A stretch of 64,000 bases of DNA from an uncultured bacterium (GTDB taxonomy: Bacteria > Zhuqueibacterota > QNDG01 > DTFT01). Location: the NCBI GenBank assembly GCA_963736115.1, contig CAVTNR010000014.1, positions 96,001-160,000 on the forward strand. Reading direction: 5' to 3'. Shown in pieces: positions 14,231-63,020 of this stretch. The notes under the pieces are model-generated. The model did no database searches and was not told where the DNA came from. It worked only from the letters and a program-made list of their open reading frames with translations. Positions within the stretch are counted from its first letter, which is position 1. The number at the start of each line of letters is the position of its first letter. A program made the translations under genes and the position numbers.

Positions 14231-16063
14231 ATGTGCGGAATAGTCGGCTACGTCGGTGAACGTCAGGCGCTTCCCATTCTCATCAGCGGGTTGAAACGGC
14301 TCGAGTACCGGGGGTACGATTCGGCCGGCGTCGCAATGATCCGGGACGGTTCCATCTGGTCCGACAAGAAGAAGGGCCGGATTAGCGACCTCGAACTCAG
14401 CCTCGCGAAGCAGCCGTCCGACGGGTTCCTGCCCGTCGGCATCGCGCACACGCGGTGGGCCACGCACGGCGCGCCTTCCGACGTGAACGCGCATCCCCAT
14501 TTCGACTGCAAGCGGAACATCGCCGTGGTGCACAACGGCATCATCGAGAATTACGCCGAGATCCGGCGCGGTCTCATCGAAAAAGGCCACGTATTCGTCT
14601 CCGAAACCGATTCCGAGGTGCTGGCCCATTTGATCGAGACATTCGACCGGGGCGACATGGTCGCCGCCATCCAGCAGTCGCTTCATCTCGTCCGGGGCAC
14701 GTTCGGCATACTCGTCCTGACGTCCCGTGAGCCCGACCGGCTCTACGCGGCCCGGCGGGGGAGCCCGTTGGTCATCGGTCTGGCGGACGACGAGAATCTC
14801 GTGGCTTCCGACGGTTCCGCCCTGGTCGAGCACACCAAGAAAGTGATCTACCTTTCGGATGACGAGATGGCCGCCATCGACCGCCGCGGCGTCCAGGTCC
14901 GGACCCTTCAGGACAGCCGGGTTTCGAAATCCGTCGAACAGCTGTCCTTCGGTCTCGAACAGATCCAGAAGGGCGGTTACGACCATTTCATGCTCAAGGA
15001 GATCTTCGAACAGCCCGAGACGATCGGCGACTCCATGCGCGGGCGGCTTCTTCCGGACGAAGGACGCGCCAAACTCGGCGGGCTGGAGGGCTATCTCGAG
15101 CGGATCCGGAACAGCGAGCGCATCATCATCACGGCCTGCGGCACGTCCTGGCATGCCGGTCTGATCGGCGAATATCTGATCGAGAAACTCGCCCACATTC
15201 CCGTGGAAGTCGAATACGCTTCCGAGTTCCGCTACCGCGATCCCATTCTTTCGCGGAACGACACCGTGATCGCGATCAGCCAGTCCGGCGAAACCGCGGA
15301 CACCCTCGCGGCCGTGCGGGAGGCCCGGCAGAAGGGCGCGCTCGTCCTCGGCCTCTGCAATGTGGTCGGCAGTTCGGTCGCCCGCGAGACGGCGGCGGGA
15401 GTCTACCTGCACGCCGGGCCCGAGATCGGAGTCGCCTCCACCAAAGCCTTCACATCCCAGGTCGCCGTACTCAGTCTGATCGCGCTGGCCCTCGGCCGGA
15501 TGACCTCGCTCTCGAACGACGAGGGCCGGCTCATGGTCCAGGAACTGATGTCCATCCCGGACAAGATCCGCGCCATCCTGGGACAGACGGACCGGATCCT
15601 GGCGCTGGCCCGGAAAATGACGGAAAAACGCAACGCGCTGTACCTGGGACGGGGATTCAATTACCCCGTGGCTTTGGAGGGCGCGTTGAAGATGAAGGAA
15701 ATTTCGTACATCCACGCCGAGGGGTACCCGGCCGCGGAGATGAAGCACGGGCCCATCGCCCTGATCGACGAGGACATGCCGGTTGTTTTCCTCGCGGTGA
15801 AGGACCCCGTGTATGAGAAGGTGCTGAGCAACATCCAGGAAGTGAAAGCGCGGGGCGGCTGGGTCATCGCGGTGGTCAATTCCGGCGACCGGGACGCCGC
15901 CCGGAACGCGGACGAGGTCATCGAAATCCCCGAGACGTCACAGCCTCTCTCGCCGATGCTGACCGTAATTCCCCTTCAGCTGCTGGCCTATCACACCGCC
16001 GTCCTGAAAGGCTGCGACGTGGATCAGCCGAGAAATCTCGCCAAAAGCGTCACCGTGGAATAA
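14231..16063 (+). CDS. glmS: glutamine-fructose-6-phosphate aminotransferase
   Basis: MCGIVG, HTRWATHG, SQSGETAD, PRNLAKSVTVE. Confidence 0.97.
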   Translation: MCGIVGYVGERQALPILISGLKRLEYRGYDSAGVAMIRDGSIWSDKKKGRISDLELSLAKQPSDGFLPVGIAHTRWATHGAPSDVNAHPHFDCKRNIAVVHNGIIENYAEIRRGLIEKGHVFVSETDSEVLAHLIETFDRGDMVAAIQQSLHLVRGTFGILVLTSREPDRLYAARRGSPLVIGLADDENLVASDGSALVEHTKKVIYLSDDEMAAIDRRGVQVRTLQDSRVSKSVEQLSFGLEQIQKGGYDHFMLKEIFEQPETIGDSMRGRLLPDEGRAKLGGLEGYLERIRNSERIIITACGTSWHAGLIGEYLIEKLAHIPVEVEYASEFRYRDPILSRNDTVIAISQSGETADTLAAVREARQKGALVLGLCNVVGSSVARETAAGVYLHAGPEIGVASTKAFTSQVAVLSLIALALGRMTSLSNDEGRLMVQELMSIPDKIRAILGQTDRILALARKMTEKRNALYLGRGFNYPVALEGALKMKEISYIHAEGYPAAEMKHGPIALIDEDMPVVFLAVKDPVYEKVLSNIQEVKARGGWVIAVVNSGDRDAARNADEVIEIPETSQPLSPMLTVIPLQLLAYHTAVLKGCDVDQPRNLAKSVTVE

Positions 16064-16074
16064 TGGAGGCTTTC

Positions 16075-18147
16075 ATGAATCTGTCAGCGAGCGTATTCCC
16101 CGCGGCCCGCTTCGCGGGATCAAGCTGTTTGATAGCTGCATTATTGAAGACTTGCCGCGGGGATAGCGAGCGAATAACAGATGTCTCTGCTCTACGGATA
16201 GAAGCTTCCCCGGCTTCGCCGGACCAAGCAACTAGATTCTCTCTGGTTGAAGGCCCGCCGCTTGCCTTCATCCAGAAGGCATATAATAGCTTGGTCCCGC
16301 GCAGCGGGACGGCGGGGAGCTTCAAATCCCGCAGACTTTTCGCGTCCGTCGCCGTCTTCCTGGCCGTACTCGCGGCCGGCAGCCTCACGGCGGCGACCGC
16401 CGAATCCCCGGACAGCGTGTTTTCCGCGGCGGTCTCCGCCTACAAAGCCGGACGCAACGCGCAAGCGCTTTCCGCGCTCGAGGCGCTGGACACGAAACAG
16501 CCGGGTCACAGCCTGACTACGGCTTCGCTTCTCATGCAGGCGAAGGCGCTGTCCCGCATGGGCGAGAGCCAGCGCAGCCGCGAAGCGTTTGAGGAGCTCA
16601 TCCTCGCGCATCCCCGGAGCGGTTATGTCGACGACGCGCGCTACGGGCTCGCCGATCTTCTGTACCGGCGCAACGACGCGCGCGGATCGCTGCTGCAGCT
16701 GCTGTCGCTGATCGCCGGCGGCGGGAACCGGGCGCTGGTTGAAAAGGCCGAGGCCCGCGGCCAGGAAATCATGGAATTCCATTTCACGACGGAGGAACTC
16801 CGCAGTCTGGTGCGGGACGTGCCCGATGAGAAAGGGAAGGCCTTCGTGACGCTGACGGCCGCGCGGCGGAACATCCAGGACCGCCGCTTCGAGACCGCCC
16901 GGACCGACCTCGACCATTTTCTGCGCTCGGCCCCGGACAATCCCTACGCGTCCCAGATGGAGAAACTGCTCGGACGGGCGGAATCGCTGGGCAAGGGCAC
17001 GGCCGTGATCGGCGTCATCCTTCCGCTGTCCGGGCCCCTGGGGGACCAGGGCGGCCAGGTGCTGGCGGGCATCCAGTACGCGGTCAAGATCAACAACGAG
17101 AAGATGCAGCTCAAGTTCGAACTGCTGGTCCGGGATTCGGAGGGCAGTCCGGTGCAGGCGATCCGGGCGGCCCAGGAAATCTGCCGCAACAACGACGTGG
17201 TGACGGTGATCGGCGACCTGGACAGCCATCTCTCAGAGTCCGTGGCCGCGGTGGCCCAGGAGAATGAGGTGCCCTGCATCGCGCCGCTGGCGATGTCCGA
17301 CGGGATGACCGGCATCGGTCCCTACGTCTTCCAGTTGAACGGCACGCTCGGCGACCGCGGACGCGTACTGGCGGAGTACGCCTGCTCCTCGCTGGGGCTG
17401 AAACGCTTCGCCATGCTCACGCCGGGAGACGCCTACGGCCGGGTGCTCCGGAAGGCTTTCGCGGAGGAAGTCGCCCGTTCAGGCGGGGAGATCCTCGCGG
17501 ATCGGACATACACGGAGGATATAAAGGATTTCAGCCCGATCCTGGCCTCCATCCGCGAAGCCGGTCTCAAGCGGTTCCTGCAGGACAGTGTGCGCGCGGT
17601 CCGGGGCGATGTCTCCGGCGAGATCGTGAAAGGCGCGATCGACCGGAAAGCCTCCCGGATGCTTGACAATCGGGACATTCCGGTGCGGTCCGTGGAAGGC
17701 TTTTTCATCCTGCCCAACCGCGGCAGCCTGGAATCCATTCTGGCCCAGATCCACTATCAGAATCTGGAGACCCAGCTTCTGGCCGGCTCCTCGCTGGACG
17801 ACCTGTCCGTGCTGCTCGGGCGGAAGGAGTTGCTCGACGGCATCGTTTTTTTCAGTGAATATTTCGCCGACCCCTACAGCCCGCGCGTGGCCGCCTTCCG
17901 CGCGGGATTCCGGAAGGAGTCGGGCCGGAATCCCGGCAGCATGGAAGCCATCGGATACGACGCCGCATCGGTCGTGCTTGAGGCCATGGGCGACAAAACC
18001 ATGCCCCGCTCCGAAATCCGGGATGCCCTCGCGGCCGTCCGCAATCTGGACGGCATACGCGGCAAAATTTCATTCGACGGGAATCGCGTCAATTCGGCTT
18101 TCCGCCTTCTGCAGTTCCGGGAAGGCCGCGTGGACATGGTTCGGTAG
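16075..18147 (+). CDS. TPR + periplasmic-binding-fold (LppC/LpoA-like) envelope protein with a repeat-derived N-terminal extension
   Basis: GGAGG SD 5 nt before ATG 16075; signal peptide KSRRLFASVAVFLAVLAA from 16324; TPR-like helices; IGVILPLSG...GYDAA...GKISFD fold. Confidence 0.75.
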   Translation: MNLSASVFPAARFAGSSCLIAALLKTCRGDSERITDVSALRIEASPASPDQATRFSLVEGPPLAFIQKAYNSLVPRSGTAGSFKSRRLFASVAVFLAVLAAGSLTAATAESPDSVFSAAVSAYKAGRNAQALSALEALDTKQPGHSLTTASLLMQAKALSRMGESQRSREAFEELILAHPRSGYVDDARYGLADLLYRRNDARGSLLQLLSLIAGGGNRALVEKAEARGQEIMEFHFTTEELRSLVRDVPDEKGKAFVTLTAARRNIQDRRFETARTDLDHFLRSAPDNPYASQMEKLLGRAESLGKGTAVIGVILPLSGPLGDQGGQVLAGIQYAVKINNEKMQLKFELLVRDSEGSPVQAIRAAQEICRNNDVVTVIGDLDSHLSESVAAVAQENEVPCIAPLAMSDGMTGIGPYVFQLNGTLGDRGRVLAEYACSSLGLKRFAMLTPGDAYGRVLRKAFAEEVARSGGEILADRTYTEDIKDFSPILASIREAGLKRFLQDSVRAVRGDVSGEIVKGAIDRKASRMLDNRDIPVRSVEGFFILPNRGSLESILAQIHYQNLETQLLAGSSLDDLSVLLGRKELLDGIVFFSEYFADPYSPRVAAFRAGFRKESGRNPGSMEAIGYDAASVVLEAMGDKTMPRSEIRDALAAVRNLDGIRGKISFDGNRVNSAFRLLQFREGRVDMVR
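16076..16324. mobile_element. palindromic repeat composite containing three 45-bp mini-element insertions (16106-16150, 16210-16254, 16265-16309)
   Basis: Blocks shared with 29841-30136 and 62901-63020; removing the units restores TCCCCGCGGC-TT-GCCGCGGGGA and GAAGCT(T)CCCCGCCGC-TT-GCGGCGGGGAGCTTC. Confidence 0.8.
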
Positions 18148-18151
18148 AGAC

Positions 18152-18907: not shown

Positions 18908-18969
18908 GTATAAGCGCCGGCGGTCATTGTTTCTGACGATATCCGCAATATTTACTGGAATCAAACGGC

Positions 18970-18998
18970 TTGACAATAATCGGGAAATTCCGCATATT
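18970..18998 (+). promoter_or_regulatory. sigma70-type promoter
   Basis: TTGACA-N17-CATATT. Confidence 0.6.
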
Positions 18999-19107
18999 TA
19001 AGGATCAGAAGAGGTATTGGTCACGCGAGACAGCGGTTTAAACTCAACCAATATCATTTCGGTAAACCAATTATTGCAGTAAGTTCATTCAACCGGAGGA
19101 GGAAAAG

Positions 19108-19671: not shown

Positions 19672-19745
19672 GCCGTCCTCAAACACCGGGGAAGAAGGAC
19701 AAAGCCTGCCCGGAATTGAGACTGTTGTATCCCAATCGTTTTTCG

Positions 19746-19780
19746 AAGGCCTTGGCGGTAGTTCCGCCAAGGCCTTTTTT
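19746..19780 (+). terminator. intrinsic terminator
   Basis: 13-bp stem AAGGCCTTGGCGG/CCGCCAAGGCCTT plus T tract. Confidence 0.85.
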
Positions 19781-19951
19781 CGGACACAGGGCCGCGGCGC
19801 GTCATTACGGGATGCTGTCGCCTCCCTTGATATAACTGGTATACCCGCAGTTACTGGAACACACGAGTCCGGAATGAAGCCCGATCAGGAGTATGGTTCC
19901 GCCTCTTTGACTGCAGCGAATCGACGGATCGTCATTCCGCGGAATTACAGG

Positions 19952-19980
19952 TTGCATCTGAAAATCAAAAGACTTATATT
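19952..19980 (+). promoter_or_regulatory. sigma70-type promoter giving a near-leaderless transcript
   Basis: TTGCAT-N17-TATATT, 10 nt before ATG 19991, no SD. Confidence 0.55.
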
Positions 19981-19990
19981 GTTTTTCCAT

Positions 19991-20719
19991 ATGTTACAGA
20001 CAATTTTAAAACCGCTTCGGATCCGCCTTCCGGCTGTGTTGGGGATCCTTTTCGCCTTGCACGGACTCGCGACCGGCCAGTCCGGCTCGGTCGAGCTCAA
20101 CCATTCCCTGCGCTTCCGTTTCGGATTGAGCGATCCGTTGAGCCCGGAACCTTTCCGTGAGAACTGGAGAACCGGATTGAGCGCGGACCTCTCCTTTCAG
20201 GCATCCGTGACCCGGTATGTCGAATTTACGGCAGGCGCCGGTTACACGGTATTCAGGCTGAACAGCCGACGGTTGTCCGGTGCGTTCAACCGCACCGCGG
20301 CCGCCGCCGCCTCTTTCGCTTTCGAGAAAGGCGCGTACCGGCTGGGTCTTCTGCATGCCGGTCTGAATGTTCATTTCGGTTCTCTCTGGAAGCCGGTTTC
20401 TTATTTTCTGCGGGCCGAAGGCGTTCTTGCCCTGGCGCACCAGGATGACATGATTCTGATCCAGGAATTCGGCGGGCAGAGGGTGCGGGAGAGAATCGAC
20501 CTCGGAGCGGACGAGGCCGCGCCCGGCGCGGTAGCGGCTGTCGGCGCCAAGATACGCGTGGATAAACGGGCTTTTATCGTTCTCTCCGCGGACGGTTGCG
20601 TTCTGCGGACATCCGATCAGGCCGGCGATTCGGATCAGGCCGCCTTGCGTCTCTCCCGGGCCCAGGGCAAAGCCACGGTGTTCACCACGTTCCGCGCCGG
20701 ACTGGACATTCAGTATTGA
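19991..20719 (+). CDS. putative outer-membrane beta-barrel protein
   Basis: Signal peptide, amphipathic strands, C-terminal FRAGLDIQY. Confidence 0.6.
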   Translation: MLQTILKPLRIRLPAVLGILFALHGLATGQSGSVELNHSLRFRFGLSDPLSPEPFRENWRTGLSADLSFQASVTRYVEFTAGAGYTVFRLNSRRLSGAFNRTAAAAASFAFEKGAYRLGLLHAGLNVHFGSLWKPVSYFLRAEGVLALAHQDDMILIQEFGGQRVRERIDLGADEAAPGAVAAVGAKIRVDKRAFIVLSADGCVLRTSDQAGDSDQAALRLSRAQGKATVFTTFRAGLDIQY

Positions 20720-21759
20720 CCCGGTCGCTCCAGGACATTCAGTCGCTGATCCGGGGCGCAGACGCGGGTAAAACGCCCGCGGTCTGCTTCCTCTTCGGAG
20801 AGGAGACCTACTGGATGGACCTGGCCGTGAAGGCCTTCCGCAAGGCGCTCATCCGGCCGGAGACGGCTGATTTCAACTGTGACCTGCTTCAGGCCGATGA
20901 GACGGACGGTGAGTCGGTCGTCCGGATCGCAAGTTCGTTTCCGCTCATGTCCGACAAGCGCCTGGTTGTGGTCAAGTCGATACAGAAATTTTCGCCGAAC
21001 GACAAGAAACGTATCCTTACCTACGCCCAGGCGCCTCTGGCTTCCACATGCCTCCTGCTGACGGCCGCGGAAGCCGACCGCAGGCAGTCCTTTTACGCCG
21101 AACTGACCGCCCTGACAGCCGCGGCCGAATGCAAGCCCCTGTATGAGAATCAGGCGGTGGATTGGGTGGCGCAAGCGGTGAAACTGCGGAAACGCGGCAT
21201 CCAGCCGGAGGCGGCCGCCCTTCTGGTTCAGCAGACAGGCACGGGCCTGTGGCCGCTGACGCATGAAATTGAAAAGCTCATCACGTACGCGGGAGAAAAA
21301 ACAGAACTGGAACTGGCCGATGTCGAGGCGGTCACCGGATTCTCCCGCAGGTACAATACCTGGGATTTCGCGGACGCCGTCGGGAGAAAGGACCTGGAAA
21401 CAGCACTGGAAGTGCTGCGGAAACTGCTCCGGCAGCGTTCGACCGGCCCGGCGCTGATTATGGACCTGCATCGGAGGGTTCTGCTGCTGACCCGGGTTCT
21501 GATCCTCCTGTCGGAGCGGACGAAAAAAGAGGCCATGGCTTCCGCGCTCAGGGTCAAGCCGTTTTTTGTGGATGAGTATATTGCACAGGCGCGCCGGTTC
21601 TCCATGCCGGAATTGCGTGTCGCGGACCGGACCCTTCTGGAGGCGGATTTCCAGATCAAAACCGGACGCCTGGACGGTGAATCCGCGATGGTGCTGGCTG
21701 TGTACGACCTGATCCGGGGCCGGCAAGGCCGGCGCTACTTCACCGGGGAATCCCTCTGA
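20716..21759 (+). CDS. holA: DNA polymerase III delta subunit
   Basis: FLFGEE, FPLMSDKRLVVVK, EIEKL, ADFQIKTG; TTG start overlapping the upstream TGA. Confidence 0.9.
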   Translation: MTRSLQDIQSLIRGADAGKTPAVCFLFGEETYWMDLAVKAFRKALIRPETADFNCDLLQADETDGESVVRIASSFPLMSDKRLVVVKSIQKFSPNDKKRILTYAQAPLASTCLLLTAAEADRRQSFYAELTALTAAAECKPLYENQAVDWVAQAVKLRKRGIQPEAAALLVQQTGTGLWPLTHEIEKLITYAGEKTELELADVEAVTGFSRRYNTWDFADAVGRKDLETALEVLRKLLRQRSTGPALIMDLHRRVLLLTRVLILLSERTKKEAMASALRVKPFFVDEYIAQARRFSMPELRVADRTLLEADFQIKTGRLDGESAMVLAVYDLIRGRQGRRYFTGESL

Positions 21760-21781
21760 CCGGCTGATTGCGGGTTCTCAC

Positions 21782-21810
21782 GGAACTTTTGCCCGGAACC
21801 CATTGTTCAA
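21782..21810 (+). promoter_or_regulatory. ECF-sigma-type (autoregulatory) promoter
   Basis: GGAACTT-N16-GTTCAA directly upstream of the ECF sigma gene. Confidence 0.55.
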
Positions 21811-21826
21811 TATATTGAAAGCGCCT

Positions 21827-22414
21827 ATGCTGGACAAGAAACAGCCGCCGACGCCATCCGACGAGAACCTGATCGAGCGGTTTCAGAACGGCGATGTGTA
21901 CGCGTTCGAGCAAATCGTGCATCGATACAAGGATCCGCTGTTGAACTTTGTATACCACTTTCTGGGCGACCGGATCGACGCGGAAGACGTGGTGCAGGAG
22001 ACTTTTTTGCGTGTGTACCGCAACAAGCACATGTACCGGAGCATCGCGAAGTTCTCGACCTGGATCTACACCATCGCCGGCAATCTGGCCAAGACCGAAC
22101 TTCGGCGCCGGAAACGGCGTCGGCTTTTTTCAATTCATTCCTCCGGATTCGACGAAAAGGGCTATGACATCCCGGATCCGCTGAGGACGGCCGATTTGCA
22201 GGTGGACGGGGAAATGAAGGAGGCCGTCATCCGCAAGGAGATCGACGACCTGCCCGTTCGTTTCCGGGAAGTGGTGGTCCTGCGCGACGTGCAGGATTTC
22301 TCGTACGAAGAAATCAGCGACATGCTGAAAATACCCATCGGCACCGTGAAATCGCGGGTCAACCGCGGGCGCCTGAGGCTCCAGAAGCGCCTCGGCGACC
22401 TGATCGAGAAATAA
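21827..22414 (+). CDS. ECF RNA polymerase sigma factor (RpoE/SigW-like)
   Basis: DAEDVVQETF, FSTWIYTIA, SYEEIS...GTVKSRVNRGR. Confidence 0.93.
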   Translation: MLDKKQPPTPSDENLIERFQNGDVYAFEQIVHRYKDPLLNFVYHFLGDRIDAEDVVQETFLRVYRNKHMYRSIAKFSTWIYTIAGNLAKTELRRRKRRRLFSIHSSGFDEKGYDIPDPLRTADLQVDGEMKEAVIRKEIDDLPVRFREVVVLRDVQDFSYEEISDMLKIPIGTVKSRVNRGRLRLQKRLGDLIEK

Positions 22415-22430
22415 TTTCGGAGGACCTTGC

Positions 22431-23000
22431 ATGACCCCTTGTCATCGGGATCACAATGACATCCTGAATTTCGCCGACGGCGGCCTGGATCCCGACCGGG
22501 AGAAACAGGTGAGCCGGCATGTGGAGGAGTGCTGCGATTGCGCCAGGCTTCTCCACAAAATCCGCCTGCAGAGAAGCTGTCTGAAGAATCTCACCCCGCT
22601 CACGACCGGGGAGAATTTCAACGTGCTGCTTCACGAGCGGATACGCCGGGAGATGGCCGGAAAACAGGGTCTGTTCCACCCCGTCCTCGACCGCAGATGG
22701 ATTCCGGTTTCGGCGGTGGCGGTCGCCGTGCTCGCCGTGGGTGTCTGGATGCTGAATCGGAAATCCACAGCGACCGCGGACCTGTCTGTGCCCATAGCAC
22801 TGAAGTCGGCGCCGGCGGCTCCGGCCACGGCGCCATCCGGCCGCAGGCCGCGTGTGCAGTACGTCATTGAGGAGTATGTGCCGGCCGAAGCCGCACAGGC
22901 TTCCGCGGACTCCGCCGCAGGCGCCGTTCCGGTCGACACTTCGGAACGGATACGCAATCTCGAAGCCCTGCGGGAGCGGCTTGTTCCGGTGAGTTTTTAA
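22431..23000 (+). CDS. zinc-binding (ZAS) membrane anti-sigma factor
   Basis: HVEECCDC (HxxxCxxC) plus a single TM helix, adjacent to the sigma gene. Confidence 0.85.
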   Translation: MTPCHRDHNDILNFADGGLDPDREKQVSRHVEECCDCARLLHKIRLQRSCLKNLTPLTTGENFNVLLHERIRREMAGKQGLFHPVLDRRWIPVSAVAVAVLAVGVWMLNRKSTATADLSVPIALKSAPAAPATAPSGRRPRVQYVIEEYVPAEAAQASADSAAGAVPVDTSERIRNLEALRERLVPVSF

Positions 23001-23017
23001 GTGGTTCCGGAGGAACC

Positions 23018-23962
23018 GTGCGGCGAATGAGAATATGGATTTTCGTCATGCTGACCGCCGGACAGGCGCTGTCGCAGAAAGCGTCCTCCGGCCCGGTTGA
23101 GATCGCCTCGGCCGTGCAGAAGGCGCTCCCGTCAGTCCTGAGCGTCGAGACCGTTTCAGGTGGCGTTCAGGACGCCTGGACGCGGGTCGGATCCGGGTTT
23201 CTGTTCGGAGACCGTTACGCGGTCACGCGTAAGACGGTCATCGACGGGGCGGACAGCATCGTCATCGCGCTGACCGACGGACGCCGGGCCCCGGCCCGTC
23301 TGGTCGCATGCGATCCGGCGACAGGAACCGCGGTTCTGGAGCACGGAATGACGGGCATCACCCCGATCCCGCCCCACGAATCCCCGGAGCCTGCGGAAGG
23401 CGCCGCGCTGGCGGTCCTCGGCAATTCGATCGGCGTCTTTCCCTCCGTCACACTGGCCCGGTTCATCAGCAGTCGGCCGGACGGTCTCATGGAAATTGAT
23501 GGTATGATCCCGCCCGGAAACAGCGGCAGTCCGGTGCTGGACGAAACCGGCCGCCTGACGGCTGTCATCATCGGCTGGGTTCAAGACGGAGCGACACCCC
23601 CGGTCGTCACCGGTCTGGCGCTTCCCGCATCCAAGGTGCTCCGGTTTCTTTCCTCCCTGCGGGAGCAAAGAGAGAGAGCCGGCTGGATCGGTTTGTCGGC
23701 CGTTGATTTGACCGGGAAAGAGCATCGGACCGGCGTAAAAGTGGTTTCCCTCCTGCCCGGAGGCCCCGCGGATCTGGCGGAATTGTCCGTCGGAGACACC
23801 ATTGTCCGGTTCCAGGATGAGCCGGTGCGGAGGGCCGCCGACCTCGCGGAACGGGTGCGATGCACGGCGCCCGATTCCAGAATCACTTTCACCATCCGAA
23901 ACGGAGGCAAGGAAAGCGTACGAAAAGTGAAGGTTTCCACCATGCCCAGGCGGTCGCCGTAA
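23018..23962 (+). CDS. HtrA/S1C trypsin-like + PDZ protein with a degenerate catalytic triad
   Basis: GSGF, PGNSGSPV, GWIGL, GGPADLA; catalytic His and Asp positions substituted. Confidence 0.82.
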   Translation: MRRMRIWIFVMLTAGQALSQKASSGPVEIASAVQKALPSVLSVETVSGGVQDAWTRVGSGFLFGDRYAVTRKTVIDGADSIVIALTDGRRAPARLVACDPATGTAVLEHGMTGITPIPPHESPEPAEGAALAVLGNSIGVFPSVTLARFISSRPDGLMEIDGMIPPGNSGSPVLDETGRLTAVIIGWVQDGATPPVVTGLALPASKVLRFLSSLREQRERAGWIGLSAVDLTGKEHRTGVKVVSLLPGGPADLAELSVGDTIVRFQDEPVRRAADLAERVRCTAPDSRITFTIRNGGKESVRKVKVSTMPRRSP

Positions 23963-24018
23963 AGAAGTTCTCCTGCCGGGCTCTCAGCCCCGCAACCCCC
24001 GCTTTGCGTCATTTTTAT

Positions 24019-24046
24019 TTGACTTTAGCCGTATTTTTCGTAAATT
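24019..24046 (+). promoter_or_regulatory. sigma70-type promoter
   Basis: TTGACT-N16-TAAATT. Confidence 0.45.
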
Positions 24047-24077
24047 ACATTTTATTTCGATTATCAGCAAGTCCCGT

Positions 24078-25379
24078 ATGGACGGGCCGTTTCGGAGTCG
24101 AACCATGCCAGGGCATAACGGACGATCCGTACTTCTCATGACGCTTCTGCTGGCAGCAGCGGCCGCAGGATTTTTTATTCCGACTTCAGGCAATCCATGG
24201 GCTTTCTCCCTTCTCAAGGCCGGATTGTTCGTCTGTGTTGCGGCCATCGGGCTGTTCGCGCTCTTTAAATCCCGTTTTCCATGGGAGAGCCGTCCGGCCG
24301 AAGCGCCGGCCCGCTCCGAAGAAGCCCGTGCCGGTTCCGGTCCGTCCGAGAGCGGCTCGGGCCGGTCGTGGGAGGGATTCGGCAAAGCGTTCGGGTCCTT
24401 CTATCGCAAATACCTGAAAATGGTCCGGGTTTCCATGGCCGCGTCCTCGATCGCCCTTTTCTTCCGCAAGGACGGCATACTCAAGCTCGAATACGGCGAG
24501 GACGCGGGAGGATCCATTGAACCGCATCTGGTATCGTCCGACGCCGGTCTTCTGGCCCAGGTCATGGCGAATAAAACGCCGTATCTTCAGAACCATCTGT
24601 CGTCCGGCTTTTCCATGTCCGGAAGGCCGGGCACCGAGGTCCGCTCCTTTCTCGGCGCGCCCCTTTGCGCCAAGGACGATGTCGTTGGAGTGCTCGCGAT
24701 CGGCAGCGAGGCGCCGGACGACTTCGGAGAGGCGGACCTCGCGATGGCGGCCCAGGTTGCGGACCTGATCACCGAGGTGATGTTCGCCTACCGGCAGGGC
24801 CTGGAGGAGGAAATCGAAGGGAAGGTCTTCAAGGTTCACCTCGATTTCATACGCCGCCTCAAATCGTCCGAGGGCGAGGATGAACTGGTCACGCACTTCA
24901 CGCAATGCCTCATGCGGCTGTTCCGGTTCGACCGGTTCACCCTGAACCTCCGCGCCGATAAAAGCGAGGAGGGCGTCATCCAGTTCGTCCAGGGCCAGAT
25001 GGACGGACTCGCGCCGGGCATCCGTTTCCCGCTTGACGAGGGACTCAGCGGATGGGTCCTGAAACGGAACACGCCGCTCATCATCGCGGACATCGGCGAG
25101 GGGGATTATCTGCGGCCCCGGTATTTCAAGGGGGAGAACAACAAGCACGGCCTTCGCTCATTTATCGGCGTCCCGCTCGGGGATGCCGGAGGCGCCTGGG
25201 GCTGTTTCAGCCTCGAGAGCCGCCGGCCCGGGCAGTACGGCGAAAAGGCGAGGGACGTGCTGATTAATTTCGCGACGCAGTTCGAGCTGGCTTTCCAGCG
25301 CATGCGCTGCGGCCGCCAGATTCAGTCCATCCGGCAGACCGACAATCCGTCGGGATCCGCCCGTTTCGAATTGGAATAG
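24078..25379 (+). CDS. membrane-anchored tandem GAF-domain protein (start uncertain)
   Basis: Two TM helices; RSFLGAPL..VVGVL and GLSGWV...RSFIGVPL GAF motifs. Confidence 0.78.
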   Translation: MDGPFRSRTMPGHNGRSVLLMTLLLAAAAAGFFIPTSGNPWAFSLLKAGLFVCVAAIGLFALFKSRFPWESRPAEAPARSEEARAGSGPSESGSGRSWEGFGKAFGSFYRKYLKMVRVSMAASSIALFFRKDGILKLEYGEDAGGSIEPHLVSSDAGLLAQVMANKTPYLQNHLSSGFSMSGRPGTEVRSFLGAPLCAKDDVVGVLAIGSEAPDDFGEADLAMAAQVADLITEVMFAYRQGLEEEIEGKVFKVHLDFIRRLKSSEGEDELVTHFTQCLMRLFRFDRFTLNLRADKSEEGVIQFVQGQMDGLAPGIRFPLDEGLSGWVLKRNTPLIIADIGEGDYLRPRYFKGENNKHGLRSFIGVPLGDAGGAWGCFSLESRRPGQYGEKARDVLINFATQFELAFQRMRCGRQIQSIRQTDNPSGSARFELE

Positions 25380-25395
25380 AAAGGAGTCGTCTTTC

Positions 25396-25590
25396 ATGGC
25401 CAAGGCAAAAAGCTTCGCCGACAAGGTGGCGAAGAACGCAATGGATTTCAAGAAGCATTGCCCCAAATGCAAGGAGCCGTACGCCAATATCCAGCTGGTG
25501 AAGGCTGAAAAATCCGCTTCCGGCAGCTGGCGTTTCAACGACCGTCATGTGGCTGTCTGCAAGTGCAACGAAAAGGAAGTCGTCCAATAA
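25396..25590 (+). CDS. small basic protein, DUF4295/bL38-like, with CxxC...CxC
   Basis: AAGGAG SD; MAKAKSFADK...LVKAEKSASGSWRFNDRHV; family call is from memory of the motif. Confidence 0.6.
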   Translation: MAKAKSFADKVAKNAMDFKKHCPKCKEPYANIQLVKAEKSASGSWRFNDRHVAVCKCNEKEVVQ

Positions 25591-25616
25591 TCCGGAAAAC
25601 CCCCGAACCCGGCCGG

Positions 25617-26201
25617 ATGGTCCTGGCCACGCGGAATGCGGATAAAGTGGCGGAAATCAGGCGCATTCTGCGGCTTCCCCCCGGCGGTCTGGCCTCCCTC
25701 CTGGATTATCCGGAAATCCCGGAAATTGAAGAAACGGGTCTGACGCTCGAGGACAATGCGCTCATCAAAGCGAGGGAGTCGCACAAGCGGACGGGCCTGC
25801 CGTCCCTGGCCGACGACACGGGGCTGGAGGTGGAGGCACTGAAGGGCGCGCCGGGCGTTTTTTCCAGCCGTTTCGCCGGACCGGACGCGAGTTACGCGGA
25901 CAACCTGCTGAAGCTTCTCCGGGCAATGGAGGGGATACCCGAGGGCAGCCGTCAAGCGCGGTTCCGTTGTGTTGTGGCGCTCAAAGCGGGGGCACGCGAG
26001 GAATGGGTGGAGGGGAACCTCGAGGGCGTTATCCTGAGAGAATCGCGGGGCACGGGCGGATTCGGATACGATCCGGTCTTTTTCATCCCCCAGGCGGGCA
26101 AAACCCTCGCGGAGATGTCCATGGAGGAGAAGAACGCGGTCAGCCACAGGGGCGTCGCGTTCAGGCGCATGGCACAACTGCTCGCGGAAAGGCCGCTTTA
26201 A
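25617..26201 (+). CDS. rdgB: non-canonical purine NTP pyrophosphatase (RdgB/HAM1)
   Basis: LATRN.K, ADDTGL, GFGYDP.F, KNAVSHR. Confidence 0.95.
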   Translation: MVLATRNADKVAEIRRILRLPPGGLASLLDYPEIPEIEETGLTLEDNALIKARESHKRTGLPSLADDTGLEVEALKGAPGVFSSRFAGPDASYADNLLKLLRAMEGIPEGSRQARFRCVVALKAGAREEWVEGNLEGVILRESRGTGGFGYDPVFFIPQAGKTLAEMSMEEKNAVSHRGVAFRRMAQLLAERPL

Positions 26202-26233
26202 GGCGGAACCTTCCAGTACAGGAAAAAGGAGTT

Positions 26234-26308
26234 CGGGGCGTGGCGCAGCCCGGCTAGCGCACCTGCTTTGGGAGCAGGGAGTCGCAGGTTCGAATCCTGC
26301 CGCCCCGA
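26234..26308 (+). tRNA. trnP: tRNA-Pro(TGG), CCA not fully encoded
   Basis: Acceptor stem CGGGGCG/CGCCCCG, anticodon arm CCTGC-TTTGGGA-GCAGG, T arm GCAGGTTCGAATCCTGC. Confidence 0.96.
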
Positions 26309-26313
26309 CCGAA

Positions 26314-26367
26314 AAACCGGACTGCAGGATTCGCTTCATGCGGAGAATTGCAGTCCGGTTTGTTTTT
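26314..26367 (+). terminator. hairpin/terminator after the tRNA
   Basis: AAACCGGACTGCA/TGCAGTCCGGTTT stem plus T tract. Confidence 0.65.
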
Positions 26368-26466
26368 GGGTAGAGATTGGGGCGGAGGCGTTTGTGCGCT
26401 TTCGATACCTGCCGGCCGCATCCATCCGGCCGGAGATGCCGGAAATCACCAGAGGAGGGTGTTGCT

Positions 26467-28701
26467 ATGAAAATCGCATGGGTGGGTCGATTTCAGGTTC
26501 TTACACGGTTGTTTTTCGCCCTGCTTTTCTCCTCTGTCCCGGTCACGGATGCTTCATCCCCTGAATCCCTCGGCCCGTACGGCGGGCAGTTCGAGTGCAT
26601 CGGCGCATCCGCGTCCGACCCGGAAATCCTGTATGCGGGAACCTGGTACGGCGGCATCTGGAAATCGACGGATTCCGGAGAGCGCTGGAATTACCTGGGT
26701 TTCCGGGGAGACCGGGTGATCGAATCGATCGCCGTCGATTGCGGCGACCCGGACAGGGTCTTCTGCGGCTGGCGGGTTCCGAACAGCCGGACAAGCTCCA
26801 GCGGCGCGGCGAGAAGTCTGGATGGAGGCCTGACCTGGGAGGAGATATTCGCTCCCGTCCGCAAGGTCGCGGCATCTCCGCTTGTGAGAAACGTGGTATT
26901 CGTCGGCAATCAGAACGGTTTGTACCGTTCCACGGACGGCGGGGACGCATTCATCCGGATCGACACTTCATTCGGATACAACAATATCTTGGTGATCACG
27001 CCGGATCCGATCGATCCGGCCGTCTGTTACCTCGGCACGGATAATGCGATTTACAAGTCCGTCGATTCGGGCGACCATTGGGTCAAGCTGAGGGACGTCT
27101 TCGATTTCATGACGTATCCAGGCTATGTCAAAGACATCTCCGTGTCCGGGATCGACAACCGCATCGTTTTGACCGCGACCGGCCGGGACGGTCTCCTGGT
27201 CAGCGAGGACGGCGGCCTGACGTGGAGAAAGCGCGATTCCGGCGCGACGGGCGCTTTTTGCGATCCTGCGGACCGTGATGTCATTTATGCGGCCCATCTC
27301 AGCGGATTCGAAAAGAGCGAGGATCTCGGACGCACATTTCAACCGCTGAGTTCCGGACGATACACGTGGGCCAGCATGGTCGGAGGAAGCATTTGGGCGT
27401 ACGATGAAGAATCCGGCGGACTGCTGAGAAGCGGGGATCGGGGAGTATCATGGACGCTCGCGAACAGCGGGGCCTGCAATACCGAAGTCCTGTCGCTCCT
27501 GCATGAAGGAGAGGGCGGTCTTTTGGCCATCACACGCTCAGGATTCAGCGGTACGCTGATCCGGCTGAAAGGCGAGGCCTGGGAAATCGTCCGGGGCGTG
27601 CAGACGGGAAGCCGCCTATATTCAGGCGTAGAAAAGGATCGTCTGTATATGATCGGAGGATGGGAGGATTTCCACAAAAGCACGGATCAGGGGAACACAT
27701 GGGATGATGAATGCACCGGGCTTCCGTATTGCGTACCGGTGGATCTGGCTGTCGATGGAGACACACTGTATCTGGCCACTGTGATCGATTTCGAAGGGCT
27801 CGACGCTGGGATTTACAGGTCCACGGATGAGGGGGACACGTGGTCTTTGTCGAGCGAAGGTCTTCCGGGGTATACCCGGGAGCACCTGGGCATTTCTCGG
27901 ACAGGGCCGATCGACGTATATTCAGTCGCGATCGATCCGAGCCATCCCTGGCGCGTGTATGCCGGTTCCTACGGGCATTTTTTCAGATCGGACAATTCCG
28001 GGGGAAACTGGAAGCAGGTTTTCTCGTTCGACGGCCCTGAGCCTGGAGTGTTCGAGGCGGTCGTTCCGGATCCGGACGGGTCCGGCCGTGTCTTCGCGGT
28101 AGTCAACTTCTGGGATGACGAAAAACCGAACGCGCTTTATCGGAGCGAAAATGACGGGATTTCTTTCGAAAAAATCGACTGCCCGCTGGATCGGGTTCTC
28201 TGCCTGTATTTTGATCCGGACAACGGTTCCCTTTACGCCGGAGGGGAAAGCGGGGTTGTCCGTTCCACGGACAAGGGTTCGGAGTGGAAACGCGTCGGTG
28301 ATCCATGGGACCGGCAAGCCGTGTCCTGCCTGGCGAAAAGAGCCGGAAGCGATGAACTGTACGCCGGGACCGTCGAAAGCGGCGTGTACCGGATCCGTCT
28401 CGGCACGGGAGTCCTCGGAACCGGCAGAATGCAACCCGAGGCGTTACTTCTTTTCCAGAATCACCCGAATCCCTTCAACGCATCGACCATCATTCGTTTC
28501 AGGCTACCGCAGGCCGCGGTTGTGACACTGGACCTGTTCGACCGGACGGGAAGGAAGATCGAGACACTGATGTCCGGGTCCAGGGCGGCCGGGGAGCACA
28601 GGGCCGTCTGGCGGCCGGAGGGACTTCCGAGCGGCGTCTATCTGTGCCGGCTTCGGGCGGGCGGATACTCCGAAACCAGGAAGCTGATTCTGCAGAAGTG
28701 A
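26467..28701 (+). CDS. secreted BNR/Asp-box double beta-propeller protein with T9SS-type C-terminal domain
   Basis: Many S.DgG.tW repeats; C-terminal NHPNPFNA...LPSGVY...KLILQK. Confidence 0.85.
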   Translation: MKIAWVGRFQVLTRLFFALLFSSVPVTDASSPESLGPYGGQFECIGASASDPEILYAGTWYGGIWKSTDSGERWNYLGFRGDRVIESIAVDCGDPDRVFCGWRVPNSRTSSSGAARSLDGGLTWEEIFAPVRKVAASPLVRNVVFVGNQNGLYRSTDGGDAFIRIDTSFGYNNILVITPDPIDPAVCYLGTDNAIYKSVDSGDHWVKLRDVFDFMTYPGYVKDISVSGIDNRIVLTATGRDGLLVSEDGGLTWRKRDSGATGAFCDPADRDVIYAAHLSGFEKSEDLGRTFQPLSSGRYTWASMVGGSIWAYDEESGGLLRSGDRGVSWTLANSGACNTEVLSLLHEGEGGLLAITRSGFSGTLIRLKGEAWEIVRGVQTGSRLYSGVEKDRLYMIGGWEDFHKSTDQGNTWDDECTGLPYCVPVDLAVDGDTLYLATVIDFEGLDAGIYRSTDEGDTWSLSSEGLPGYTREHLGISRTGPIDVYSVAIDPSHPWRVYAGSYGHFFRSDNSGGNWKQVFSFDGPEPGVFEAVVPDPDGSGRVFAVVNFWDDEKPNALYRSENDGISFEKIDCPLDRVLCLYFDPDNGSLYAGGESGVVRSTDKGSEWKRVGDPWDRQAVSCLAKRAGSDELYAGTVESGVYRIRLGTGVLGTGRMQPEALLLFQNHPNPFNASTIIRFRLPQAAVVTLDLFDRTGRKIETLMSGSRAAGEHRAVWRPEGLPSGVYLCRLRAGGYSETRKLILQK

Positions 28702-28868
28702 ACCGGATGTTCGGCTCCCGGTCATCCACTGCGATGTTTTAAAGGGAATTCCCAGCAGACCACGACGCGGGAGTCGGGAAAAACGCAGGTCGGGTGAAGG
28801 GACCTGTCCGGTCGTGAGCGTGTTTCCAAAATACCGGCACTCCTTTGATCAAAGACAAGGAGAAGTGA

Positions 28869-29780
28869 ATGATCCGTTCAACCGGAGCACAGAGCATTCT
28901 CGCGGTTTGCATCTCCATCGCGTCGATTTCGGCCGCGCAGGAGACACCTGGAGACACAGACCGGTCCGGGGCCGGAGCGGACACCGACCGCATCCGCGTC
29001 GTCATGCGCGCGGACGACTTCGGTTTCACGAACGCAGCCAATCAGGCGTGTATCCGGGCCTTTCGGGAGGGCATCCTCACCTCGGTGGAGGTTCTGGTTC
29101 AGGCGCCCTGGTTCCTGGCGGGCGCGGAACTGCTCAGGCAGAATCCCAGTCTGGATGCCGGCGTCCATCTCAGCCTGACCTGCGAATGGGATAATTACAA
29201 ATGGCCGCCTCTGTCGCACGCTCCGGGCCTGCGCATGCCAGACGGCTTTCTGCCCGTTACCAACGAAGATTTCGACGGTCTGAACGCTCCGCTCCAATCC
29301 GTGGAGCGGGAATTCCGAAATCAGATAGAAACGGCGCTCCGCCACATCCCTCAGCTCTCGCATCTGTCCACGCACATGTCCGCGCCGACATCGACCCCGG
29401 CGCTGCGCTTTCTCCTTGTGAAGCTGTCCCTGGAATACAAACTGCCGCTTCAACCCGCGGGCGTGACACAGATGGAGGGCATGTGGGGCGAACCGGTCGA
29501 GAAAAAGGAGTCCTTTCTCGCGGACGCCCTGTCCGGCTGCGGGCTCGGCGGCATGATGTTCGTCTGCCATCTGGCGCTGGATGACGCCGAAACCCGGGCG
29601 ATACGCGGAACCGGGCATGACGCCATGACGCGGATGGCGGCGCATCGGCAGGCTGAAACGGATGCGGTTATCAGTGCGACGATCAGGAAAATCATAATTG
29701 AAAGGGACATTTTACTGGTCGGTTACACCGGTAAAACCCGTCCCGAACCGTCACGGGAAGACATGAAAACCAATCCCTGA
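28869..29780 (+). CDS. ChbG/YdjC-family carbohydrate deacetylase, exported
   Basis: RADDFG, GVHLSLTCEW, SHLSTHM; signal peptide. Confidence 0.85.
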   Translation: MIRSTGAQSILAVCISIASISAAQETPGDTDRSGAGADTDRIRVVMRADDFGFTNAANQACIRAFREGILTSVEVLVQAPWFLAGAELLRQNPSLDAGVHLSLTCEWDNYKWPPLSHAPGLRMPDGFLPVTNEDFDGLNAPLQSVEREFRNQIETALRHIPQLSHLSTHMSAPTSTPALRFLLVKLSLEYKLPLQPAGVTQMEGMWGEPVEKKESFLADALSGCGLGGMMFVCHLALDDAETRAIRGTGHDAMTRMAAHRQAETDAVISATIRKIIIERDILLVGYTGKTRPEPSREDMKTNP

Positions 29781-29840
29781 GACGGAACCAACCGGACTTT
29801 CACCGGACCGATCGGGCATGCCCGGATGGACCGCAAGTCA

Positions 29841-30136
29841 ATCGGGCGGCCAGAAGTCTGTTCATTCCGGTTCCAATCTTTTTAGTGAGTCGGAGATTGG
29901 GCTTCTGGCCGCTCCGACGGGTCTGATTCCCCGGCTTCGCCGGACCAAGCAATGAGATTTGTTCATTATTGAAGGCCCGCCGCTTGCCTTCAATATGATA
30001 AAAAAATATACTAGCTTGGTCCCGCGCAGCGGGACGGCGTCCATCATCCAAGTTACTTGTGATTCCCCGTTGCTTGTCTTCAATACTTTAGATATAGAAT
30101 AGCTTGATCCCGCGCAGCGGGCGGCGGGGTCCTTCA
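29841..30136. mobile_element. palindromic host repeat carrying three mini-element insertions (29931-29976, 29987-30034, 30077-30121)
   Basis: 296 bp = the 157-bp empty allele (58904-59060) + 46 + 48 + 45 bp. Confidence 0.85.
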
Positions 30137-30450
30137 ATCACGAATAACCGCAAGGAAGGTCCGGTTCCGGCCGGTATCTCGGTGTTCTCCACGAACCGAC
30201 GGGCGGTCAACGGAAAGACCGATCCCAATCCGCCGGAATCGGATAACCCGTGCAGACTGGAATGTTTTACTTTCATTTTGCCAAATCGTACATCCTTTTC
30301 AAACCTCCCCGATGGCTATTCTGCGAATATAGTTTATAATAATCAAAAACTTAGACATGGATTGATTCCGTTCATTCCGTTGGCATATTATTTGTAATAT
30401 GCTCAATGGGATTTCTCCGAAAAGGGATTGTGATTTTAAGGGGATTGTTG

Positions 30451-30633
30451 ATGAACGGAACTCAAATCCGGGAACTCCGCGTCACCATGGGCCTGACGCA
30501 GGAGGAGTTCGCCCACCGTCTGGGAGTCACCCTCTGCACGGTGAACCGGTGGGAGAACAACAAAGTGGCTCCCAGCCGGCTCGCCATCAGACAGCTTCAG
30601 AGCATTGTTTCTTCGAAACGGAATCAGAATTGA
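30451..30633 (+). CDS. XRE-family helix-turn-helix regulator
   Basis: IRELR..MGLTQEEFAHRLGVT..TVNRWE. Confidence 0.88.
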   Translation: MNGTQIRELRVTMGLTQEEFAHRLGVTLCTVNRWENNKVAPSRLAIRQLQSIVSSKRNQN

Positions 30634-30724
30634 AACGGCAAGGGATGCGTGTTCCGCGGAAACGCCGCGGCCGTGGGGGAGCGGGCCGGAAACGAGTTCA
30701 CCGATTGACAGGGAGTCGGATCCC

Positions 30725-58903: not shown

Positions 58904-59060
58904 ATCGGGCGGCCAGAAGCCTGGTCATTCTGGTTCCAGTTTTTCTGGATGATCGGAGATTGGGCTTCTGGCCGCTCCGACGGGTCTGGTTCACCGCCGC
59001 TTGCGGCGTCCATCATCCAAGTTTCCTGAGATACTCCGCTGCTTGCGGCGGAGTCCTTCA
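58904..59060. repeat. 157-bp palindromic host repeat, empty allele
   Basis: Colinear with 29841-30136 minus the three inserts; identical 36-mer at 58953-58988 and 29890-29925. Confidence 0.85.
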
Positions 59061-62900: not shown

Positions 62901-63020
62901 TGAATCTGTCAGCGAGCGCATTCCCCAGTCCCGCGATGCGGGATCAATCTGCGGATGATGGCTATTGAAGACTTTGCGGGACCAAGCTATCGGATTATTT
63001 CAATATTGAAGGCCCGCGGC
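62901..63020. mobile_element. repeat composite with two (probably nested) mini-element units
   Basis: TGAATCTGTCAGCGAGCG shared with 16076; unit cores at 62938-62972 and 62976-63013. Confidence 0.75.

Follow-up and report, generated by a model that had tools for sequence, protein, structure and literature searches.

A hairpin-bearing unit of about 45 nt is gained or lost within palindromic repeats of one bacterial order

Our data define a gene-free DNA unit of about 41 to 48 nt that is separable from its surroundings, follows a fixed junction rule with respect to the hairpins that it occupies, and is gained or lost at orthologous sites in related genomes. The unit is confined to one bacterial order. 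It is probably a discrete, non-coding and non-autonomous module that has been inserted repeatedly, without target duplication, into hairpin-forming DNA. The first-pass annotation of the 64,000-nt stretch in which the unit was noticed (here called the window) had described an extremely small, gene-less module parasitizing larger palindromic repeats and had pointed to HUH or IS110 enzymes as its movers. The parasite reading is backed by filled and empty paralogous sites, two orthologous indels, at least five hairpin contexts, and self-nesting. The enzymatic attribution, in contrast, is not supported by our data, as set out below.

All eight copies listed in that annotation were recovered in the window, with coordinates agreeing within 1 to 2 nt (Table 1). 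Each begins with a GC hairpin of 5 to 6 bp, usually CCCGC-TNC-GCGGG (the other form in the window is CCGGC-TTC-GCCGG), and continues through AYCAAGC and a freely varying, AT-rich core of about 14 to 20 nt to TTGAAGR, the ends on either side of the core being conserved. Two loci of the window are copies of one larger repeat, Host-1, with and without units. As had been proposed, subtraction of 46, 48, and 45 nt from the 296-bp copy leaves exactly the 157 nt of the shorter copy, and the trimmed sequence aligns with the latter without gaps, with 137 of 157 positions identical; a MAFFT pairwise alignment of the two loci gave one large gap instead of three and was set aside. The insertion points also stand: one unit lies just 5' of a CCGCCG-CTTG-CGGCG hairpin, and the other two separate a loop from one of its arms, with no target duplication and a boundary ambiguity of only 1 nt (a C). 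When the 48-nt unit is read in its own orientation, its junction falls between the 5' arm and the CAAG loop. Six further Host-1 copies carry the subtype of the 46-nt unit at this host position.

Table 1. Repeats and units in the window
Feature	Position	Strand	Remarks
Host-2 composite repeat, 246 bp, three units	16076..16321	+	in frame, 5' end of ORF 16063..18147
Unit	16106..16150	+	junction of 5' arm and CTTG loop of hairpin CCCCGCGG-CTTG-CCGCGGGG
Unit	16210..16253	+	5' foot of second Host-2 hairpin
Unit	16265..16308	-	between loop and 3' arm of second Host-2 hairpin
Host-1 repeat, filled, three units	29841..30136	+	long inverted-repeat stem, hairpin 1, hairpin 2
Unit, 46 nt	29931..29976	+	5' foot of hairpin 1; CCGGC-TTC-GCCGG, ACCAAGC, core, TTGAAGG
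Unit, 48 nt	29987..30034	-	between CTTG loop and 3' arm of hairpin 1
Unit, 45 nt, ATCAAGC...TTGAAGA type	30077..30121	-	between loop and 3' arm of hairpin 2
Host-1 repeat, empty, both hairpins intact	58904..59060	+	no unit
Short-form unit, 42 nt, core TGCGGATGATGGCT	62930..62971	+	nested in hairpin of next unit
Outer unit: loop, 3' arm, body	62972..63012	+	5' arm displaced by nested short unit

Deleting the first unit of the Host-2 composite restores a 9-bp hairpin. Toward the end of the window, a short-form unit is nested in the hairpin of another unit. After this outer unit comes CCCGCGGCTAC, with which a GTAG-type REP ends; identical nesting recurs at C8 100342, C12 423471, and C17 84101. 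A short form of about 41 nt has the core TRCAGATGCYGGCT, and partial matches to the left end of the unit proved to be degraded or short-form copies. The four unit loci of the window lie between genes or at the start of a gene, and no mobilizing enzyme was seen in the window as far as it was examined, in agreement with the earlier annotation. The window also encodes a T9SS sorting domain and a TonB-dependent receptor.

The unit is abundant in the genome. The first-pass annotation had suggested a scan of both strands, and in the 3.34-Mb genome the pattern GGAYCAAGC-N12-22-TTGAAGR has 102 matches, 55 forward and 47 reverse and often as inverted pairs, versus 0 for the reversed control. Within the window, CAAGC-N12-22-TTGAAGR occurs 6 times (0.14 expected; at least 6 in 0 of 100 shuffles). 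A nhmmer profile built from 101 copies gave 187 genome matches at E<1 and 136 at E<=1e-3, with 155 spanning essentially the whole profile. None of these profile matches provided a pair of unit ends bracketing an ORF.

Both the hairpin and the two ends carry the marks of conserved base pairing. Among 164 candidate units with at least 4 of 5 hairpin pairs directly before AYCAAGC, the stem is CCCGC/GCGGG in 90, CCGGC/GCCGG in 17, GCCGC/GCGGC in 6, CCAGC/GCTGG in 3, and CCCGT/ACGGG in 2; at three stem positions, therefore, both partners have changed in a compensatory manner. A T-N-C loop is found in 93 of these candidates, and in 45 the T preceding the hairpin pairs with the A following it. Furthermore, the Y of AYCAAGC covaries with the final R of TTGAAGR in 154 of 165 units of this genome: C occurs with G in 101 copies and T with A in 53, versus 6 copies with C and A and 5 with T and G. 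In an alignment (A2) of 44 distinct units from six genomes the pair is C-G in 23 and U-A in 21 and is never unpaired, and its covariation score was reached by 0 of 500 shuffles. Directly after the unit stands a C in 129 of 154 copies. The two strands do not differ in stability under DNA parameters (means of -6.66 and -6.66; 49 versus 46 of 101 copies).

Host-1, about 157 nt long and present in 40 copies in the genome, has a long inverted-repeat stem and, after it, two GC hairpins whose loops are CTTG. Occupancy was counted in the 30 copies that retain the right-hand anchor. In these, the length of the hairpin 1 interval is quantized, and all four combinations of the two sites occur. The interval is 16 to 18 nt, i.e., empty, in 22 copies; 27 nt, a hairpin-sized remnant, in 1; 62 to 64 nt in 4, each with a single unit, which lies on the 5' side in two of these copies and in the loop in the other two; 112 nt in 1, the window copy with its two units; and 152 to 155 nt in 2, with two units plus a nested short unit.

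Units reside in at least five unrelated types of hairpin: besides Host-1 and Host-2, they are found in the loops of GTAG REP-A and of REP-B, in GTCAT-tagged SRM-like hairpins, and in the unit's own hairpin. REP-A and REP-B are GTAG-tagged REP families that flank RAYT-like genes. BIME-type mosaics are clusters of palindromic units that alternate in orientation and are joined by a few fixed linkers. Inverted pairs of units around a host hairpin are common here, but units are optional, can be nested in each other, and are also found singly in other repeats; at C9 80301, three units are nested one within another. The junctions obey a simple rule. For 49 of the 155 full-length units, deletion restores a perfect hairpin of 5 to 15 bp, and, in the orientation of the unit, the junction is precisely where the 5' arm meets the loop. 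For 76 of the 155, removal restores no hairpin of at least 5 bp, in most inspected cases because a second unit adjoins and a single removal is insufficient. The other common position is just 5' of a stem, at its foot. We found no target sequence shared across the insertion sites.

Comparison of four genomes of the same genus (G000, the genome that contains the window, and G001 to G003), with about 10 to 15% divergence in flanking genes, allowed us to address presence and absence directly. Two orthologous loci show a clean difference of a single unit. At C8 ~97001, hairpin 2 of a Host-1 copy (~96775) carries a unit in G000, and the corresponding hairpin in G002 (C128) is bare, with an exact gap of 45 nt; hairpin 1 of this copy holds different units in the two genomes. 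At C2 107616 in G000, a 47-nt unit sits at the foot of a GTCATGC-CCGCG hairpin and is absent from the orthologous hairpin in G001 (C5). Each of the two differences is the gain or the precise loss of a unit. Two of the first three orthologous alignments that we tried had diverged spacers and were uninformative. In one REP-B loop, G000 has two short units nested in each other and G001 has three; their 5' arms are piled up left of the bodies, the arrangement expected if each new unit entered the most recent hairpin. In G023, which belongs to another family of the order, a different host was found in one empty and two filled copies, the unit lying directly 3' of an AT-rich hairpin; a search for an empty site of the composite in G026 found none. 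In all 13 sequencing runs listed, none of them RNA, Logan contigs cover only small shares of the sequence. In four of these runs, contigs from other metagenomes join position 29933 to position 30035 via CCGCTTG. These junctions represent the empty form of hairpin 1 in other copies or in relatives and are no proof for the orthologous site.

The host repeats, too, are insertions that vary between species, a point that the first-pass annotation did not see. At six loci examined, at least one congener has an orthologous spacer that lacks, with base precision, the Host-1 or Host-2 composite found in G000. The filled Host-1 copy of the window is wholly missing from the orthologous spacer of G002, and the empty copy is missing from those of G002 and G003. 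The Host-2 composite, which reads without a stop codon, is present in G000 and G002 and absent from G001 and G003; at position 16210 the unit subtype differs between G000 and G002, and the two neighboring units are orthologous. Unit subtypes correlate with host position, as exemplified by the AATGAGATTTGTTCATTA core at the foot of Host-1 hairpin 1. Therefore, many copies have spread with their host and not alone.

The distribution of the unit is narrow. The strict pattern has 102, 69, 54, and 44 matches in the four congeneric genomes; the sister genus has 3, G026 has 16, and the rest of the order has 0 to 3, against 0 to 1 in reversed controls. A covariance model built from 44 copies, which in this search returned up to at least 40 copies per genome, detected the unit in three families of the order (f1, f2, and f6) and in 12 of its 31 genomes. 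Outside the order, 1 of 120 sampled genomes of the phylum gave a hit, with a marginal E-value of 6e-4. The context of the unit is constant in families f2 and f6: an AT-rich hairpin comes first, then the unit, and then AAAAGAAYCGGCC and a T run.

These observations have to be weighed against other ways in which such a pattern could arise. The unit might be one module of a BIME-like intergenic mosaic that is reshuffled by homologous recombination, gene conversion, and replication slippage with no dedicated mover, the filled and empty sites then being products of conversion and not of transposition. The tie between unit subtypes and host positions is in keeping with this idea, as are the orthologous host copies with different subtypes at one position, which is what conversion gives, and the tandem arrays of identical units with periods of 46 (G003, C182) and 40 (G002, C136). 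The host repeats are also abundant and similar enough to recombine, with 40 copies of Host-1 alone, and no enzyme among the RAYT and GIY-YIG candidates that we checked is linked to the unit. However, conversion would require a filled template flanked by homologous sequence, and the unit occupies at least five unrelated hairpin contexts and, in other families, a position beside an AT-rich hairpin. Self-nesting stacks the 5' arms away from the bodies, which slippage at a tandem period does not, and the exact arm-loop junction recurs in 49 cases with different stems. We regard both the reshuffling itself and an origin of the filled and empty sites by conversion as unlikely.

Another explanation is that the unit is a selected cis element, such as a protein-binding site, a transcript-end or attenuator signal, or a small RNA module, which is kept for its function and recruited repeatedly beside hairpins, mobility being secondary. 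Its ends and hairpin, in contrast to the drifting cores, are indeed conserved across three or more families of the order, and the compensatory hairpin changes and the Y-R covariation point in the same direction, as does the fixed context in families f2 and f6. Moreover, a 7-bp helix with a bulged A can form in copies at the foot of a stem, where GR and the CCCGC of the host are able to pair with the 3' arm, A, and YC. Against a selected element, presence varies at orthologous sites, and units occur in both orientations (55 versus 47) and often as inverted pairs. A second hairpin in the core or right part is not general (mean z of -0.5, with 21% below -2, n=101), one composite lies inside a coding region, and the flanking genes are unrelated. 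The Rfam search that the first-pass annotation had suggested gave no match on any unit over the whole window at the gathering score, and a second search at E<=5, covering 15900-30400 and three loci of G026, gave none on the units either. Both the function and the repeated recruitment for its sake appear doubtful to us. The reshuffling and the functional explanations may nonetheless hold in part alongside repeated insertion of a discrete module.

A series in which the filled form is original and shorter alleles such as the empty Host-1 copy of the window are derived by deletion is highly improbable: decayed copies that retain only the unit hairpin do exist (C30 30182, C27 14089, C9 182641), but the empty state is the majority (22 of the 30 anchored Host-1 copies) and consists of perfect palindromes, deriving the shorter window copy from the longer one would take three separate deletions that are each exact to the base and lack direct repeats at their flanks, and units are also found outside Host-1. 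Because the unit occurs elsewhere and empty host copies predominate, we do not see in these loci the truncation of a fixed larger repeat.

The unit also lacks defining features of REP/REPIN sequences, IS200/IS605 derivatives, MITEs, and SRM/NTS repeats. It is probably closest in behavior to the SDR elements of cyanobacteria. These "very small mobile repeated elements," reportedly described by Elhai et al. in 2008, are said to be gene-less, to measure tens of bases, to be nested in other small repeats and in each other, to show filled and empty sites, and to have no known enzyme. The unit is similarly gene-less, tiny, and nested, with filled and empty sites. However, it belongs to another phylum, appears to be unrelated in sequence and about twice as long, and seems to differ by the fixed GC hairpin at one end and by the arm-loop rule.

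REP, REPIN, and BIME sequences, which are associated with RAYT (TnpA-REP) proteins of the HUH-Y1 type, are presented in PMC3116915, PMC3733652, and PMC3337134 as short GC-rich intergenic hairpins in hundreds of copies. PMC3116915 also describes mosaic clusters of alternating orientation, no target duplication, and a presumed single-strand mechanism. The unit shares with them the short GC-rich hairpin and the lack of target duplication, and its inverted pairs recall the mosaic clusters of alternating orientation. Unlike them, it has a long non-palindromic tail (AYCAAGC, core, TTGAAGR) and flanks no RAYT gene, and neither a GTAG nor a CGTC tag stands beside its hairpin on either strand, where variable bases are found on one side and AYCAAGC (GCTTGRT in reverse) on the other. 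The true REPs of this genome carry GTAG; the unit lies inside their loops and is not itself a REP.

IS200/IS605 elements have a hairpin near both ends, which are asymmetric and not inverted terminal repeats, and they insert 3' of a fixed tetra- or pentanucleotide without target duplication, the hairpins being recognized in single-stranded DNA. The unit resembles them in its asymmetric ends without inverted terminal repeats and in its filled and empty sites that differ by no duplication beyond the 1-nt ambiguity. The Y-R covariation could reflect a base-paired contact between a hairpin-adjacent site and the cleavage site, by analogy with IS200/IS605. In contrast to these elements, only the left hairpin of the unit is conserved, and the sequences 5' of the unit vary, being arms of different hairpins, ATTCC, GTCATGC, and so on. 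Read on the other strand, many unit sites follow CTTG, CAAG, or GAAG; the insertions at the foot of a stem do not. Nor is the unit a classical MITE, since its two ends do not form an inverted repeat and its sites show no target duplication.

A further comparison concerns Ssn, a single-domain GIY-YIG protein that, according to PMC11893778, binds a tagged hairpin in single-stranded DNA and cuts a few nucleotides 5' of it. The motif described there (SRM/NTS) consists of a 5' CGTC(AT) tag that is important for cleavage, a palindrome, C, and then YRG; the IS200/IS605 family is mentioned in the discussion. Ssn is known only as a nuclease and is not known to move DNA. In our genome, the host hairpins (ATTCCCCGCSG-CWWG-CSGCGGGGAAT) and those with a GTCAT tag resemble the published ATTCCC...GGGAAT and CGTCAT-tagged motif (PMC11893778). 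The unit's hairpin followed by A-TC-AAG is reminiscent of the 3' half of the SRM motif as it appears there, the unit having no 5' tag, and its left boundary lies where Ssn cuts relative to a hairpin, a few nucleotides 5' (PMC11893778). Other repeats of the genome, TGTCATCCCCGCG-CAA-GCGGGGATCCAG, do fit the SRM motif. Insertion sequences that target REP hairpins include ISPpu9 of the IS110 family (PMC12288879, PMC8450116), and IS1397 and ISKpn1 (PMC3116915). They share with the unit the insertion into palindromic repeats; unlike the unit, they exceed 1 kb and carry their own transposase.

Rickettsia palindromic elements, a class of small palindromic repeats, may occupy in-frame positions within genes. 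The Host-2 composite of the window is in frame in a similar manner, the sole case that we examined; units are otherwise intergenic. We discarded an integron attC reading, there being no cassette layout and no R''/R' core sites, and a CRISPR reading, there being no array layout. Our literature search, whose coverage was incomplete and which is thus not proof, found no description of the unit or of a hairpin-loop-seeking mini-element in this lineage.

Turning to possible enzymes, we find three RAYT-like Y1 genes (PF01797) in the genome, at C19 57402-57902, C2 71373-71864, and C17 75009-75635. Each has a REP family of its own on its flanks, and units are found within 2 kb of none of them. The RAYT gene on C19 has orthologues with 70 to 77% identity in G001, G002, and G003, all rich in units, and none in G004; in other unit-bearing genomes its homologues reach at most 36% identity, and the four related genomes do not constitute independent evidence. 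Across the 31 genomes of the order, the RAYT gene on C2 has an orthologue only in G001, that on C17 has none, and PF01797 is present in all 31, with or without the unit. As regards the HUH part of the original attribution (IS200/IS605, RAYT), no RAYT gene clearly tracks the unit, and the single conserved hairpin, the lack of GTAG, and the lack of a conserved target tetranucleotide give no support to HUH or IS110 enzymes. The only IS110-type gene in the genome, 8 kb outside the window, was set aside because nothing ties it to the unit.

Five small single-domain GIY-YIG genes are present in the genome, on C7, C8, C9, C15, and C26, their membership of the Ssn clade (cd10448) being putative, and hairpins fitting the published NTS/SRM motif flank two of them. 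In G000, units lie 22, 39, and 473 bp from three of the five. This association was not reproduced in the relatives, where only 1 of 14 such genes in G001 to G003 and G026 has a unit within 1.5 kb. Orthologue patterns of two GIY-YIG types across the 31 genomes do not track the unit; when these two types and the three RAYTs were considered together by distribution, none fitted cleanly. In genomes with few copies, 32 ORFs beside units were scanned and included no enzyme gene, the neighbors being unrelated housekeeping genes. As the genome is 87% complete, the gene could be missing from the assembly.

Considering these data, we propose a model for the spread of the unit. The asymmetric ends, the lack of target duplication, the exact arm-loop junction, and the self-nesting argue for a single-strand, structure-guided reaction, and the covariation of the end bases suggests that both ends meet beside the hairpin. 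In this model, the unit would move as single-stranded DNA, recognized through its own hairpin and its paired ends by a hairpin-specific enzyme acting in trans. Insertion would in most cases fall right at the boundary of 5' arm and loop and in the remaining cases at a stem foot, and could take place in the hairpin of an earlier unit as well. A unit within a host repeat would also be carried along whenever the host repeat spreads.

As to the mover, our first guess, a tentative one, is a RAYT-type HUH/Y1 protein. A rather doubtful second guess is an Ssn-type GIY-YIG single-strand nuclease whose cut would be followed by repair copying. A bolder version, which we regard as improbable, is an undescribed structure-guided single-strand reaction in which a small hairpin-binding enzyme, possibly an Ssn-type GIY-YIG or a RAYT protein, would recognize the unit's hairpin and base-paired ends and join the unit at the arm-loop boundary of any exposed GC hairpin. 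If this version is true, the unit would be among the smallest self-contained transposition substrates in bacteria, and it would be the first evidence for movement of DNA by such a nuclease family.

Small hairpin repeats abound between genes, their multiplication is poorly understood, and few have a proven enzyme. The unit is an unusually clean case, combining a substrate of about 45 nt, an exact junction, recursive self-nesting, covarying ends, and filled and empty orthologous sites. With such a substrate and a handful of candidate enzymes in a 3.3-Mb genome, the mechanism is directly testable using oligonucleotides and purified proteins. More generally, mosaics that look like REPs or BIMEs can arise by the layered insertion of even smaller parasites, and such layering matters for the annotation of intergenic regions, for breaks in the assembly of metagenome bins, and for apparent "structured RNA" candidates.

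In ORF 16063..18147, a TPR/periplasmic-binding lipoprotein gene lying immediately downstream of glmS, a stop-free, in-frame composite of Host-2, one of the larger palindromic repeats that carry the ~45-nt units, separates the start codons (MEAFM) from the signal peptide. This composite is present in G000, the genome holding the window, and in its congener G002, with the reading frame open in both, and is absent from the congeners G001 and G003. Within the last of the composite's units, an in-frame TTG might provide the lipoprotein ORF with a new start codon.

Features in the window (positions without contig label), G000 and its congeners (genome:contig:positions)
Feature	Location	Remarks
ORF start region with Host-2 composite	16063-16330	composite of 246 bp = 82 codons
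Region with GIY-YIG gene, 84 aa	G000:C15:1600-2750	flanked by tRNA genes
Region with GIY-YIG gene, 96 aa	G000:C8:40800-41800	tandem repeat arrays either side
Paralogue of 96-aa gene	G000:C26:17703-17987	near-canonical SRM-like hairpin upstream
RAYT-like Y1 genes (n=3)	G000:C2:71373-71864; C19:57402-57902; C17:75009-75635	
IS110-family transposase gene, single	G000:C14:88161-88577	~8 kb upstream of window start
Head-to-tail array, 3 identical units	G003:C182:34071-34234	period 46
Head-to-tail array, 2 short units	G002:C136:30013-30126	period 40

Small GIY-YIG, RAYT-like and IS110 genes of G000 are listed in the table (SRM, the hairpin motif of Ssn GIY-YIG nucleases). Near the 84-aa GIY-YIG gene, spare tRNA copies hold in their T-loop a ~36-nt two-hairpin insert (GGTTCG|...|AATCC) that differs from the unit, and the arrays bracketing the 96-aa gene are built of a ~29-nt GTCAT-tagged hairpin (GTCATCCCCTCAGTTTTCAGGCGGGAT). 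Each of the three RAYT-like genes has its own family of short palindromic repeats (REPs) on both sides; two of these families are GTAG-tagged, and the remaining one is AGCCGCGYTGGGGCGCGGCACTCCC.

In two other families of the order, f2 and f6, the unit is embedded in a fixed composite that runs from an AT-rich hairpin through the unit and AAAAGAAYCGGCC to a T run, the segment 3' of the unit being a repeat of the AT hairpin's loop and 3' arm; in genome G026 the composite is followed by a GC-rich palindrome. Away from the units, weak, below-threshold Rfam matches to FsrA and mir-2788 (E 0.3-1.2) at window 19617-19777, a palindromic spot without relation to the units, are probably due to chance.

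Besides the head-to-tail arrays, the G001:C13 locus, orthologous to G000:C9:30553, shows seven stacked 5' arms (CCCGT-like pentamers) followed by only three unit bodies; the surplus arms could be left over or could reflect pentamer slippage. At G000:C19:~30400-30700, a copy of the ~157-nt Host-1 repeat is interrupted by an empty Host-2 repeat at the foot of the hairpin, just 5' of the stem, a position also used by units. Since Host-2 is here inserted at a unit-type position of Host-1, the host repeats may share the targeting of the units that they carry.
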